Shown here piece by piece: positions 60,169-63,578 of a stretch of DNA of 64,000 bases. Positions within the stretch are counted from its first letter, which is position 1, and every line of letters begins with the position of its first letter. The position numbers and the translations under genes are program-made. Under the pieces are notes generated by a model that had not been told where the DNA came from, made no database searches, and worked only from the letters and a program-made list of their open reading frames with translations. The stretch lies in assembly GCF_988243305.1 (NCBI RefSeq), contig NZ_OZ547136.1; one strand, 5' to 3'.

Positions 60169-61529
60169 CAGTGAAATACTACGCCATTCTGACTATTCAG
60201 GGCGCAGCACGGCTGGCTAACGCGACGATGCTCGGCAGTAAGCTGAATCTGACGCAAATGGCCGTTGGTGATGCGAATGGTGTCTTGCCGACACCAGACC
60301 CGGCACAGACAAAACTGATTAACCAGAAACGCATTGCACCGCTGAATCTTCTTAGTGTTGACCCGAACAACCAGAGCCAGATTATTGCGGAGCAAATCAT
60401 CCCTGAGAGCGAGGGCGGATTCTGGATCCGTGAGATTGGGCTTTATGATGATGAAGGCGTACTCATTGCGGTGGCGAACTGCCCGGAAACGTACAAACCG
60501 CAGTTGCAGGAAGGCAGCGGTCGTACCCAGACTATCCGCATGATTCTGGTTGTCACGAATACCGAAGCCATCACGCTGAAAATCGACCCGTCGGTGGTAC
60601 TGGCGACCCGTAAATACGTGGATGATGAAGTCCTGGAATTAAAGCTGTATGTGGATGACCAGATGAGAAACCACATTGCCGCACAGGATCCTCATACCCA
60701 GTATGCGCAGAAACATAATCCGACATTTACCGGAGAACCAAAAGCGCCGACGCCTGCCGCAGGAAATAACACCACGCGGATTGCGACCACTGAGTTTGTT
60801 CAGGCCGCTATTACCGCTCTGATTAACGGTGCGCCAGCCACACTGGACACACTGAAAGAAATTGCCGCGGCCATTAACAATGACCCGAAATTCAGCACCA
60901 CCATTAACAATGCGCTGTCAGGTAAGCAGCCACTGGATGAGACGCTGACTCATTTGAGTGGAAAGGATGTAGCTGGTCTTCTCGCATACCTTGGTTTGGG
61001 AGAAGGTTCGGCATTACCCGTTGGCGTGCCTGTTCCGTGGCCTTCCGCCACTCCGCCAACAGGCTGGCTGAAATGCAACGGTGCCGCTTTTTCTGCTGAA
61101 GAATACCCGGAACTGGCAAAGGCTTATCCGACAAATAAATTGCCTGATTTACGTGGTGAGTTTATTCGTGGCTGGGATGACGGGCGTGGTGTGGATGCGG
61201 GACGTGCCTTGCTAAGTCTTCAGGATGACTCTTTTGAAGCGCACAGGCATGAGTCCTTTTTTTACGCGGGTATTTCTCGCAATGAAATACCATTAAAAAA
61301 TCTTCCAAGTTCAGACGAGATGCTGACTTTAAGTTCTACAACTAATGCCTTGTCCCCGGACGGTATTGATGCCACTAATTCGTTAATTGGTAATGATGAT
61401 TACAACTGTCTGATTGAAGGAAATAAAAATAACAAACGAACAGCGACGGGGTTGAGTACCAGTATTGTCGGTGCAGCAGAGACACGCCCACGTAATATTT
61501 CATTTAATTACATTGTGAGGGCTGCATGA
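60165..61529 (+). CDS. H: Tail fibre protein gpH (constant N-part fused to variable C-part of current orientation)
   Basis: 454 aa; conserved N-terminus MTVKYYAILTIQGAARLANA; recombination site inside at ~60979-61004. Confidence 0.85.
   Translation: MTVKYYAILTIQGAARLANATMLGSKLNLTQMAVGDANGVLPTPDPAQTKLINQKRIAPLNLLSVDPNNQSQIIAEQIIPESEGGFWIREIGLYDDEGVLIAVANCPETYKPQLQEGSGRTQTIRMILVVTNTEAITLKIDPSVVLATRKYVDDEVLELKLYVDDQMRNHIAAQDPHTQYAQKHNPTFTGEPKAPTPAAGNNTTRIATTEFVQAAITALINGAPATLDTLKEIAAAINNDPKFSTTINNALSGKQPLDETLTHLSGKDVAGLLAYLGLGEGSALPVGVPVPWPSATPPTGWLKCNGAAFSAEEYPELAKAYPTNKLPDLRGEFIRGWDDGRGVDAGRALLSLQDDSFEAHRHESFFYAGISRNEIPLKNLPSSDEMLTLSSTTNALSPDGIDATNSLIGNDDYNCLIEGNKNNKRTATGLSTSIVGAAETRPRNISFNYIVRAA
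60979..61004. repeat. Invertase crossover site (left), within H
   Basis: ttctcgcataccttggtttgggagaa; inverted partner at 62905-62930; resembles gix/hix pattern. Confidence 0.6.
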
Positions 61530-62131
61530 TGTATAACGCCATCTTGAATAGTAAACTTATTGCCACAAAGGCAGGAGAGATTACCGTTTATAACTATGAC
61601 AGTGAGACACGGGAGTATATTTCTGCATCAACTGAATATCTTGCTGTGGGTGTCGGTATCCCTGCATATTCCTGTTTAGATGCTCCTGGCACACATAAGG
61701 CTGGTTATGCAATCTGCCGTTCGGCAGATTTAAACTCATGGGAATATGTGCCAGACCATCGCGGTGAAATCATCTATAGCACCGAAACAGGAGAATCGAA
61801 AGAAATCACAGCTCCGGGTGATTATCCTGAAAATACAACCACTATCGCCCCGTTAACGCCATACGATGAATGGGATGGTGAGAAATGGGTAACAGATACT
61901 GTGGCACAGCATAGCGCCGCAGTAGGCGCGGCAGAAGCACAGCGCCAGTCACTGATTGATGCAGCAATGGCTTCCATTAGTCTGATTCAGCTGAAATTAC
62001 AGGCCGGACGGAAGTTGACGCAGGCAGAAACAACCAGCCTTAACGCTGTGCTGGATTACATTGACGCGGTGACGGCAACTGATACCAGCACCGCGCCTGA
62101 TGTCATCTGGCCTGAACTGCCGGAGGCGTAG
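61526..62131 (+). CDS. G: Tail fibre assembly chaperone (gpG/U-like)
   Basis: 201 aa; follows H. Confidence 0.75.
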   Translation: MMYNAILNSKLIATKAGEITVYNYDSETREYISASTEYLAVGVGIPAYSCLDAPGTHKAGYAICRSADLNSWEYVPDHRGEIIYSTETGESKEITAPGDYPENTTTIAPLTPYDEWDGEKWVTDTVAQHSAAVGAAEAQRQSLIDAAMASISLIQLKLQAGRKLTQAETTSLNAVLDYIDAVTATDTSTAPDVIWPELPEA

Positions 62132-62543
62132 GCCATTCAATATCTGGCGCACCGGAAGTATCGACCAGCTCCAGTGCGTCCAGATAATCCAGCCACAAAT
62201 TATATTGCGCCAGTTCCTCACCTTTCAGACGACCAATAGCCGCTTTACCAGGCCATTGTTTACTGTTCATGTATTCGTTGGCCTGGTTAATCAATTGCTG
62301 TTTTTCCAGTTCGGCTGCAGCAATCTGTTCCTCATGTGTTGGTGGTGGAATTTCAGACCATGCAGGAAAACCATTTTCTCCAGCGATGCGGATTTTCCCT
62401 TCCGGCGGTAATCCGGAAAACTCAATATACACCTGCTCGTCAACTTCAACAGCATCATCTGGCCATGATTCAGCTTGAGTGTAATCCTCTTTCATCTCCA
62501 GCGGATAGAAAGAGTTTGTAGTCGCGGAATATATATAATTCAT
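62103..62543 (-). CDS. Alternative tail fibre assembly chaperone (U')
   Basis: 146 aa; C-terminus (…WLDYLDALELVDTSGAPDIEWPTPP) resembles C-terminus of the + strand copy (…VLDYIDAVTATDTSTAPDVIWPELP). Confidence 0.7.
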   Translation of the reverse strand: MNYIYSATTNSFYPLEMKEDYTQAESWPDDAVEVDEQVYIEFSGLPPEGKIRIAGENGFPAWSEIPPPTHEEQIAAAELEKQQLINQANEYMNSKQWPGKAAIGRLKGEELAQYNLWLDYLDALELVDTSGAPDIEWPTPPAVQAR

Positions 62544-62564
62544 TTCTCATTCCATATAGCTAAA

Positions 62565-62957
62565 TTAACAGCCTAACGCTAAAAATGAAGCGCCGAGACC
62601 TGGAGTACTGGCTCTGGATATAAATTTAACCGGGTCGGGACTAAAACCTGCACAGGCAATATAACCAACAGCCCCGCTATCTGGTGTGTAGTCTTGTGAG
62701 ACCAAAACACGCAGACATCTGTTTGGAAATGCAATCGGGAAATGGGTTACTACATCCTGTGCAATGCCTGGTGCGCCGATTGAGCCCCACTGAAGAATAA
62801 AACCTGATGGTAATTTTTGATATCCAGTACCTGAAACAGAAAGCGTGAAGCTACCCATATCAGGTATCTGATTCGCCCCTGTCCCTACATTCCTTTTAGC
62901 CGCTTCTCCCAAACCAACGTTTATGAAAATGCAGAGATAACGGGCAACTGGCATCAT
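62565..62957 (-). CDS. Alternative tail-fibre C-terminal cassette (Sv'), promoterless in current orientation
   Basis: Reading frame runs into crossover site 62905-62930. Confidence 0.6.
62905..62930. repeat. Invertase crossover site (right)
   Basis: TTCTCCCAAACCAACGTTTATGAAAA (AAACC…GTTT core like gix/hix). Confidence 0.6.
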
Positions 62958-62978
62958 CTCCGGTTTTTATTCAGGGGG

Positions 62979-63578
62979 ATGCTCATGCTTATTGGCTATG
63001 TACGCGTGTCAACAAATGACCAGAACACGGAATTGCAGCGTAACGCGCTGGAGTGCGCAGGATGCGAGCGGATTTTTGAGGATAAAATCAGCGGCACGAA
63101 GTCCGACCGACCGGGACTGAAAAAACTGCTCAGAACATTATCATCAGGTGACACTCTGGTAGTCTGGAAGCTGGACCGGCTGGGGCGTAGTATGCGGCAT
63201 CTGGTCATTCTGGTTGAGGAGCTGCGCGAACGCGGCGTTAATTTTCGCAGCCTGACAGATGCTATTGATACCAGCACGCCGATGGGGCGTTTTTTCTTTC
63301 ATGTGATGGGTGCCCTGGCTGAAATGGAACGAGAACTCATTGTCGAGCGGACTCGCGCCGGACTGGAAGCGGCCAGAGCTAAAGGTCGTATTGGTGGCAG
63401 ACGTCCGAAGCTCACCGCGAGTGAGTGGGAACAGGCAGGACGGTTGCTGGTTGCGGGTGAATCACGTCAACGCGTGGCGCTGATTTTTGATATTGGCCTG
63501 TCCACGCTCTATAAAAAATTCCCCTCATCAGCGGCAAAGAATAAATTGTGTCATCCCTTAGCCAACCGGGACAAATAG
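62979..63578 (+). CDS. Serine DNA invertase (Pin/Gin/Cin/Hin family)
   Basis: MLIGYVRVSTNDQNTELQRNAL…; catalytic Ser in YVRVST; C-terminal HTH. Confidence 0.9.
   Translation: MLMLIGYVRVSTNDQNTELQRNALECAGCERIFEDKISGTKSDRPGLKKLLRTLSSGDTLVVWKLDRLGRSMRHLVILVEELRERGVNFRSLTDAIDTSTPMGRFFFHVMGALAEMERELIVERTRAGLEAARAKGRIGGRRPKLTASEWEQAGRLLVAGESRQRVALIFDIGLSTLYKKFPSSAAKNKLCHPLANRDK

Follow-up and report, generated by a model that had tools for sequence, protein, structure and literature searches.

The DNA analysed here, a single stretch of 64,000 nucleotides (the window), carries near its right-hand end part of an Escherichia coli P2-like prophage. Its backbone can be read from the gene order, V-W-J-I-H-G...FI. 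The homologous region is annotated as V, W, J, I, fibre, ... sheath, tube, E and tape measure, the best phage matches to it are Peduovirus records, and the start of FI and the pF promoter region are nearly identical to those of P2. In canonical P2, the order is H, G, terminator, fun(Z), pF, FI; the original prediction had placed Z/fun between G and FI, and the P2 annotation agrees. In the window, a different module sits where canonical P2 has fun(Z).

The features of this module are collected in Table 1. The functional unit begins at the start codon of H, position 60165. At its other end, the homologue of the activator-binding site of pF overlaps the last ~12 codons of the open reading frame of a DNA invertase, whose C-terminus is 13 amino acids longer than that of PinE from the prophage e14; the extra part reads into the P2 pF promoter region. 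The pF homologue, as placed by alignment, marks the right junction between the module and the P2 backbone.

Table 1. Features of the tail-fibre module and the adjoining P2 backbone, in window coordinates.
Feature	Position	Strand	Description or basis
H, complete open reading frame	60165-61529	+	454 aa in present orientation (Sc-Sv)
Sc, constant part of H, common to both fibre variants	60165-60990	+	Phage_tail_fib N-terminal domain
Left 26-bp crossover site	60979-61004		Inside H; TTCTCGCATACC-TT-GGTTTGGGAGAA
Sv, variable C-terminal tip of H, expressed in present orientation	60991-61529	+	Collar domain
U, tail-fibre assembly chaperone for Sv, on in present orientation	61526-62131	+	phrog_105 "tail fiber assembly", E 3.7e-97
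U', alternative tail-fibre assembly chaperone	62103-62543	-	phrog_188, E 1.1e-66
Sv', promoterless alternative fibre tip	62565-62917	-	Tail-fibre PHROGs; Gp53-like C-terminal domain
Right 26-bp crossover site	62904-62929		TTCTCCCAAACC-AA-CGTTTATGAAAA
Serine DNA invertase, Pin/Gin type, outside the invertible segment	62985-63578	+	197 aa
Predicted recombinational enhancer	63007-63069	.	Two Fis-site-like 15-mers; homology
Homologue of P2 late promoter pF region	63543-63637	+	Alignment with canonical P2; P2 annotation
FI, tail sheath gene, start only (leaves the window)	63638-64000	+	Translated N-terminus; homologues are phage tail sheath proteins

A repeat search of the 64-kb window returned inverted-repeat arms at 60979-61005 and 62903-62929, and these hold the two crossover sites. 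The left site is translated as part of H (...LLAYLGLGE). The second lies 1,925 bp downstream of it, in inverted orientation. When the site consensus TTCTCNNAAACCNNGGTTTNNGAGAA was sought with up to three mismatches, these two were the only matches in 64 kb, where 100 shuffles of the window gave a chance expectation of 0.00. Applied to Mu as a positive control, this search finds the annotated boundaries (gix) of the G segment, and it also finds the sites of e14. Inversion requires, of course, that the central dinucleotides of the two sites be identical. Here, they are TT (left) and AA (right) on the plus strand, which become the same once the inverted orientation of the sites is taken into account. 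One T in the left site departs from the consensus (GCATACC), and the P2-like prophages of GPEC and T22 have this left-site sequence too.

No third crossover site was found with up to three mismatches in the 64 kb, or with up to five between 60 and 64 kb. A shufflon-like system, with three or more sites and more than two arrangements, was rejected because only two sites were found in the 64 kb; what lies beyond 64000 would be P2 backbone.

Sc matches Pfam PF12571 over residues 1-150 (E 2.8e-61), while Sv matches the Collar family (PF07484, E 1e-14) and, weakly, a short-tail-fibre receptor-binding domain (PF14928, E 0.0046). NCBIfam yielded no match to any of the fibre, tip and chaperone proteins; the matches came from PHROGs and Pfam. 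A separate tail-fibre assembly protein follows each tip, and the two sets face each other, with the genes for U and U' converging so that their 3' ends overlap by 29 bp. U' is silent at present, and inversion would switch on its expression. A 130-amino acid open reading frame at 62565-62957 on the minus strand arises only because the promoterless Sv' cassette happens to read on past the crossover site.

When the segment is flipped in silico, H is fused in frame to Sv' to give a 392-amino acid protein, H', whose residues 310-392 match the Gp53-like_C family (PF21882, E 8.8e-14). RefSeq annotates the same 392-amino acid Sc-Sv' fusion in genomes that are naturally flipped. The C-terminal domains of the two tips are unrelated, one being of the Collar and the other of the Gp53-like_C type. 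What the original prediction had drawn at this locus stands in every structural detail: a P2-like prophage with a module at the Z/fun position, inverted 26-bp sites near 60979, inside H, and near 62905, two convergent chaperone genes and an opposite-strand fibre C-terminal cassette between them (confirmed by the open reading frames and PHROGs), and an Sv-U/U'-Sv' layout; the analysis adds that the frame is kept upon inversion.

Both arrangements of the segment are present in public genomes. The evidence for orientation comes from close relatives (95-98% identical, the nearest 96-98%), not from the source strain. With the window orientation scored as colinear when at least 80% of 3.6 kb aligned, it is found in 56 complete E. 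coli genomes; another 52 are colinear with the flipped sequence, some as a single piece with 100% coverage and 97.6-97.7% identity. Two related isolates, GPEC1209 and GPEC1210, show no mismatch over 9,544 bp, save for the exact reverse-complementing of the 1,840 bp between the repeats. The prospect, raised with the original prediction, that only one orientation would ever be observed is contradicted by these genomes.

Long inverted repeats can, in principle, produce artefactual differences in orientation between assemblies, and the two public orientations might then reflect RecA-dependent recombination between the repeats, or assembly error, rather than site-specific inversion. Here, however, the repeats agree perfectly over no more than ~15 bp (GGTTTGGGAGAAG with its flanks), and the breakpoints lie precisely within 26-bp sites of the Gin/Pin type that adjoin an intact invertase gene. 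Because the shared repeat is far too short, RecA recombination and misassembly of complete long-read genomes were both rejected, and next to no credence is left for them.

The enzyme expected to work on such sites is encoded just past the right one, as had been proposed of a Pin-like invertase. Its product matches phrog_125 ("DNA invertase", E 6e-100), and is 85.6% identical to e14 PinE and 78.3% to Mu Gin. Translation most likely starts at 62985 (MLIGYVRVST) and not at 62979, since Gin and PinE begin likewise and RefSeq annotates the homologues so; this start is 67 bp from the right site. The protein aligns without gaps to the Gin structures 3uj3 and 4m6f (Gin 1-184, E 1.7e-94), and its residues 139-188 match the helix-turn-helix DNA-binding domain of Hin (1hcr, E 1.5e-8). 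An N-terminal resolvase-type catalytic domain, a C-terminal helix-turn-helix, a length of ~190 amino acids and two imperfectly palindromic 26-bp sites, inverted to each other, place the system in the Gin/Hin/Cin/Pin subclass.

Individual residues were also compared. The nucleophile S9, whose catalytic role in Gin-type invertases has been described (PMC3575834), is present within VRVSTND; at this site the 3uj3 crystal construct carries the substitution S9A. The invertase retains the wild-type H106 and M114, the latter being the site of M114V, a mutation that makes Gin independent of Fis (PMC3575834). The basic residues K46, K47 and R50 of helix B correspond to Hin K47, R/K48 and R/K51 (the numbering is that of Hin minus 1), and the Fis-contact pair R153-L154 to Hin R154-L155; the significance of the invertase-specific basic residues in helix B and of the Fis contacts has been discussed for Hin-type enzymes (PMC3798978). 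An inactive invertase had been named as one outcome that would speak against a switch. The open reading frame is full-length, has Ser9 and is intact.

Two Fis-site-like 15-mers near the start of the gene, TGTCAACAAATGACC (63007-63021) and GCGCAGGATGCGAGC (63055-63069), lie 48 bp apart, centre to centre, and form a predicted recombinational enhancer whose distance to the right-site centre is ~98 bp. The assignment was made by homology, in part with the hin sequence; a Hin-like homologue and the published account of Hin corroborate it only indirectly. Enhancers of this subclass span about 65 bp, are flanked by Fis sites and act in cis near one crossover site. The geometry of the 63-bp stretch matches that of the Hin enhancer as described (PMC3798978). 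In an alignment of eight invertase genes, TGTCAACAAATGACC is nearly invariant, third codon positions included. Synonymous codon identity peaks at 0.73-0.77 over codons 1-16, against 0.45 overall; a general 5'-to-3' gradient is present as well, and other causes, translation initiation or mosaic recombination for example, are possible. The raised synonymous conservation is thus only suggestive of an element at the 5' end of the gene. We infer that inversion would depend on Fis and on an enhancer in this place; enzymes of this subclass need both Fis and negative supercoiling to invert DNA in vitro. A simple rule for Fis sites (G-N13-C, AT-rich) was tried and dropped, as its matches were many and ambiguous.

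A consensus scan between the right site and the start of the invertase gene gave no convincing sigma-70 promoter. The same interval holds a weak terminator-like hairpin (62946-62965). Invertases of the Gin type are expressed from very weak promoters, and the gene may be served by a weak constitutive one.

The undetected promoter might instead be taken as the mark of a fossil, an inherited architecture whose segment is locked in the Sv orientation, the invertase being unexpressed or the prophage defective. The non-consensus T of the left site could be read in the same way, and the 64-kb window stops short of the end of the prophage. Against this stands, first, an invertase that is full-length and has every key residue that was tested. 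Further, the left-site sequence in question is also that of the GPEC prophage, which occurs in both orientations with no other difference; the two orientations are about equally common over the 108 genomes; and very weak promoters are normal for this type of enzyme. A fossil is, on this balance, very unlikely.

A second alternative accepts that inversion is real and assigns it mainly to Pin-family invertases of the host acting in trans (e14 PinE, PinQ of Qin, PinR of Rac and the like), with the local enzyme redundant. Gin, Cin, Pin and Hin do, of course, cross-complement each other. The right site matches its e14 P-segment equivalent letter for letter, an identity that also disposes of the concern that the inverted repeats might not be conserved, and the left differs from its e14 counterpart at 3 of 26 positions. 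Further, PinQ of the prophage Qin inverts the e14 P segment in trans (PMC12529663). However, the prophage's own invertase gene is intact, lies in cis where such genes canonically do, and has a predicted enhancer. Inversion mainly in trans is accordingly improbable, and it complements inversion by the local enzyme rather than replacing it.

The explanation preferred here, held with high confidence, is a two-state tail-fibre (host-range) switch, driven by a Gin/Pin-type invertase and inserted at the fun(Z) place of an E. coli P2-like prophage. The crossover site splits H into the constant Sc and the variable tip Sv. The serine invertase, whose gene lies just beyond the segment, would bind both sites, cut at the central TT/AA dinucleotide and turn the strands through 180 degrees, so that the 1.9-kb segment is reversed. 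As the segment now lies, the late operon would deliver Sc-Sv (454 amino acids, with a Collar-type tip) together with the TfaE-like chaperone U. In the inverted state, it would deliver Sc-Sv' (392 amino acids, with a Gp53-like tip) together with U'. Virions of two kinds, differing in receptor specificity, should therefore come from a lysogenic culture. That the two orientations differ in actual host range is likewise what one would expect, because the tip domains are unrelated.

A further role is conceivable. With a tip that is StfE-like and an accompanying U that is 90% identical to TfaE, the Sc-Sv fusion resembles the chimeric e14 fibre StfE2, which is reported to block adsorption of phage T2 once PinQ has driven the inversion (PMC12529663). 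The switch might, by analogy, double as an orientation-dependent surface block that protects the lysogen from phages. H belongs to the late operon, however, and should be silent in a lysogen, and such a role is a long shot.

Switches of this type, those in P2-like prophages included, have already been described and annotated, and the one in the window is not new. What it offers is guidance in reading such loci. Neither the opposite-strand "gp53-like domain" open reading frame nor the second "tail fiber assembly protein" is a gene of its own or a pseudogene; together they make up the silent half of a switch. A difference in the orientation of the segment between assemblies of one strain may be genuine, and induction of the prophage is to be expected to yield a mixture of virions of either receptor specificity. 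The module is one more well-preserved example of a Pin/Gin cassette that moves among unrelated backbones (lambdoid e14, Mu, P2-like).

Of the known systems, the original prediction had named the Mu G segment as the model. The comparison upholds the invertible fibre switch that this implied, a class to which Mu G, P1 C and e14 P belong; the nearest relative, however, is not Mu G but the P segment of e14 in E. coli K-12 (stfP-tfaP / tfaE-stfE / pinE). Here, architecture and order are identical: a fibre gene split at the left site, a chaperone, a convergent chaperone, an inverted tip, the right site and the invertase. The e14 tfaP and tfaE likewise overlap convergently by 29 bp, and the segments are of similar size (1.9 kb here, 1.8 kb in e14). 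Beyond the closeness of the invertase to PinE, U is 90.5% identical to TfaE, U' 53% to TfaP, and Sv 55% to the StfE fragment. The differences are that the e14 backbone is lambdoid and defective where that of the window is of a P2-like myovirus, that the Gp53-like Sv' tip is only ~27% similar to the StfP tip, and that Sc is the N-terminus of a P2-type H.

With the G segment of Mu and Gin, the module has mechanism and layout in common (Sc|Sv-U / U'-Sv' / gin), along with the half-site ...AAACC of the 26-bp sites, an invertase that aligns without gaps (78% identity), and the distance from right site to invertase start (68 bp in Mu). In Mu, however, the segment is 3 kb long and the core dinucleotide is TC/GA rather than TT/AA; its tips and chaperones have essentially no sequence similarity to those of the window, except for the C-terminus of U' at 30%.

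Hin, which acts on the H segment in the flagellar phase variation of Salmonella, is of the same enzyme subclass and uses 26-bp sites of the same design. In hin, too, the Fis enhancer lies where it is predicted here, in the 5' part of the gene and ~100 bp from a crossover site. However, Hin flips a promoter and its gene is inside the segment, whereas in the window a coding tip is exchanged and the invertase gene is outside. Fin of Fels-2 is reportedly a precedent.

Canonical P2 (NC_001895), whose late genes run V W J I H G ... FI FII E T U D as is typical of the P2-like phages (Peduoviridae), has the backbone gene order and the pF-FI region in common with the window prophage, and identity to it resumes ~80 bp upstream of FI. 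In P2, a single, non-invertible H-G pair, the terminator of the V operon and fun(Z) take the place of U'-Sv' and the invertase. The two H proteins are ~42% identical in their N-terminal part and unrelated at the tip.

The P2-like loci in the literature and databases have the backbone, the position (fibre genes to FI) and the gene set of the window. Peduovirus records of this kind include "Escherichia phage P2" from O157:H43 T22 (NC_041848), pro483 (NC_028943) and 500465-2 (NC_049343), in which the set is annotated as a tail protein, two tail-fibre assembly proteins and a DNA invertase. The cassette sequences themselves vary from member to member, with 47-81% query coverage in the phage records. 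A DNA invertase is said to be seen "often" in the Z/fun hotspot (bioRxiv 10.1101/2024.10.15.618418). In the P2-like prophages of EPEC E2348/69, phase-variable inversion in the tail-fibre loci was shown by whole-genome sequencing and PCR; one of these has three sites and four states, where the prophage in the window has two sites and two states (PMC4272514).

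The original prediction placed inverted 26-bp crossover sites inside the tail-fibre gene H and near 62905. A repeat search returns arms at 60979-61005 and 62903-62929, holding a left site, TTCTCGCATACC-TT-GGTTTGGGAGAA, and a right site, TTCTCCCAAACC-AA-CGTTTATGAAAA. In both, a 2-bp core separates half-sites of 12 bp that follow the pattern TTCTCnnAAACC; once one site is turned into the orientation of the other, the TT and AA cores are identical. Allowing at most three mismatches, the palindromic consensus occurs at exactly two places in 64 kb, which are these two sites, against 0.00 expected after shuffling. 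The same scoring recovered, as positive controls, both annotated boundaries of the Mu G segment and both sites flanking the e14 P segment in K-12.

Two sites make a simple switch; a shufflon would need more. The consensus search (three mismatches or fewer, 64-kb window) found no third crossover site. Thus, this is a two-state switch, and a shufflon is rejected.

Between the sites, two convergent chaperone genes and an opposite-strand cassette for a fibre C-terminus had been proposed, and the open reading frames bear this out (see the table). Here, the flip was made in silico by reverse-complementing 60991-62917. The junction retains the frame of H and yields H', a 392-aa fusion of the constant N-terminal part of H to Sv', the alternative tip. 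By Pfam, H and H' have in common the Phage_tail_fib N-terminal domain. The tip of H carries a Collar domain and a weak match to a short-tail-fibre receptor-binding domain; that of H' carries an unrelated Gp53-like_C domain. Behind each tip stands its own tail-fibre assembly protein, U (phrog_105, E 3.7e-97) or U' (phrog_188, E 1.1e-66). The variable parts have a G+C content of 0.43-0.45, lower than the backbone (~0.57).

The 3' ends of U and U' overlap convergently by 29 bp (62103-62131), exactly as do tfaP and tfaE in e14. An inverted repeat (62050-62067 / 62176-62193) arises from a C-terminal motif common to the two chaperones.

Coordinates of the features discussed
Feature	Position	Strand	Remark
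cpxP	38220-38723
Tyrosine integrase	38910-39920	-	start of P2-like prophage
ImmA/IrrE-type HEXXH peptidase, 161 aa	45823-46308		PADLOC capP 1e-30, also RmrA-like
199-aa protein	46375-46974		without family
313-aa protein	47057-47998	-
J	58656-59564	+
I	59557-60168	+
H, tail fibre, 454 aa	60165-61529	+
U, chaperone, 201 aa	61526-62131	+
U', chaperone, 146 aa	62103-62543	-
Sv', fibre-tip cassette, 116-117 aa	62565-62917	-	ORF continues to 62957
Serine recombinase, 197 aa	62985-63578	+
FI, tail sheath gene	63638 onward	+	start only

Does the segment flip? This was assessed on public genomes in place of reads. The 3.6-kb region in the window's orientation has a colinear match over at least 80% of its length in 56 complete E. 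coli genomes, and the version flipped in silico has a match in 52. Because 80% colinear coverage is unreachable for a genome in the opposite orientation, the two sets are mutually exclusive. Matches to the flipped version include single pieces with 100% coverage and 97.6-97.7% identity, continuous across both predicted junctions.

Evidence of flipping is most direct for GPEC1209 and GPEC1210, a pair of related isolates from chicken. Their prophage is ~96% identical to that of the window and occupies the same place in the chromosome, its coordinate being nearly the same in both isolates, and each has the same two 26-bp sites. Their 9,544-bp regions show no mismatches, except that the stretch of 1,840 bp enclosed by the shared repeat cores is exactly reverse-complemented. 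The possibility that only one orientation would ever be observed is thereby contradicted. Both orientations might also be produced by RecA recombination or by misassembly; the perfectly shared repeat is, however, only ~15 bp, and these are therefore rejected as realistic causes. We infer from these sequences that the segment would flip in the source strain itself. In strain MS 198-1, one copy lies in a 66.8-kb record and another in the chromosome, in opposite orientations.

The gene that follows the segment encodes, as anticipated, a Pin-like serine invertase (85.6% identical to PinE of e14, 78.3% to Gin of Mu). It aligns without gaps to Gin residues 1-184 (PDB 3uj3/4m6f; E 1.7e-94), and its C-terminal 50 residues match the domain by which Hin, the Salmonella invertase, binds DNA. 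The nucleophile S9 is retained, as are wild-type H106 and M114; M114V is a substitution that gives Fis-independent Gin (PMC3575834). Also retained are K46, K47 and R50, basic residues of helix B conserved uniquely within the invertase subclass (PMC3798978), together with R153-L154, equivalent to the Fis-contacting R154-L155 of Hin. With these residues and alignments, the enzyme resembles a typical Gin/Hin/Cin/Pin invertase that depends on Fis. We infer both this Fis dependence and a promoter for the invertase.

The 5' end of the gene might also carry a recombinational enhancer. Eight invertase genes were aligned (window, GPEC, pinE, a Klebsiella P2-like phage, gin, phage 500465-2, a Hin-like gene and phi80 pinL). 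Two 15-mers stand at gene positions 23-37 and 71-85, spaced by 48 bp; in the window they are TGTCAACAAATGACC (63007-63021) and GCGCAGGATGCGAGC (63055-63069). The first is near-invariant in all eight, third codon positions included, and its centre lies 98 bp from that of the right site. Codons 1-16 show a synonymous codon identity of 0.73-0.77, the gene as a whole 0.45. In the Hin-like gene, ATTTA and TAATG fall exactly between the 15-mers. The 15-mers are assigned to a candidate enhancer partly by comparison with the hin sequence. The Hin enhancer is 65 bp long, with a Fis site at both ends, AT-rich ATTTA and TAATG segments between them, and a distance of ~100 bp to a hix site (PMC3798978). 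The pattern fits, without proving, an overlapping cis element, a candidate Fis enhancer.

Between the right site and the invertase start, a weak terminator-like hairpin with a T-run occupies 62946-62965 (six pairs, three of them G-C). Because it lies outside the invertible segment, it could terminate late-operon transcription in both orientations; it may also be chance.

In canonical P2, H and G precede the V-operon terminator; next come fun(Z), which is encoded on the opposite strand, the activator site of pF and then FI. The prediction had correctly put Z/fun between G and FI. In the window, identity to P2 restarts at ~63558, and the stretch homologous to the activator site of pF is at ~63543-63569. 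This, in turn, means that the last ~12 invertase codons are P2 promoter sequence, so that the 3' end of the gene overlaps the FI promoter and the protein exceeds PinE by 13 aa. The overlap marks the acquired module's right junction.

The window is E. coli chromosome: over 30000-38800, which covers the cpxA-cpxR-cpxP/fieF region, it matches E. coli genomes at 99% identity. The integrase lies directly downstream of cpxP, and thus the prophage, which extends past the window end, is at the cpxP-fieF locus. Many related prophages are found at matching coordinates in RefSeq genomes. The "old/tin" hotspot of P2, between gpA (42366-44684) and the portal gene Q (48425-49459, minus strand), is here a low-GC island at 44400-48000 (0.35-0.45 versus ~0.57 in the backbone) with three ORFs; the 313-aa product had zero matches in Pfam, NCBIfam and PADLOC. 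The island may be uncharacterised anti-phage cargo.

Invertible tail-fibre switches in P2-like prophages are already known. Goldberg et al. (2014; PMC4272514) showed, by WGS and PCR, phase-variable tail-fibre inversion in two P2-like prophages of EPEC E2348/69; one is two-state, and the other, which has three inverted repeats, is four-state. According to a 2024 preprint on hotspots (bioRxiv 10.1101/2024.10.15.618418), P2-like phages "often" have a DNA invertase in their Z/fun hotspot, along with inversion of adjacent genes. The same genes recur in phage records of the Peduoviridae (for example NC_041848, NC_028943 and NC_049343), under the annotations tail protein, tail-fibre assembly protein (twice) and DNA invertase. 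In e14, PinQ-driven inversion of the P segment is reported to give a chimeric fibre, StfE2, which keeps T2 from adsorbing (PMC12529663); a similar host-protective side effect of an StfE-like form here would be speculative and of low probability, because H is in the late operon.

The original prediction read the switch correctly; it is an ordinary, well-preserved example of a textbook class. At the protein level the module is a mosaic, closest to the e14 P segment: U shares 90.5% identity with TfaE, Sv (the tip now joined) 55% with StfE, and U' 53% with TfaP. Of the crossover sites, the right one is identical to its e14 counterpart, and the left one differs from its counterpart at three positions. 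The proposed likeness to the Mu G segment holds for the architecture and the invertase, but essentially for these alone.
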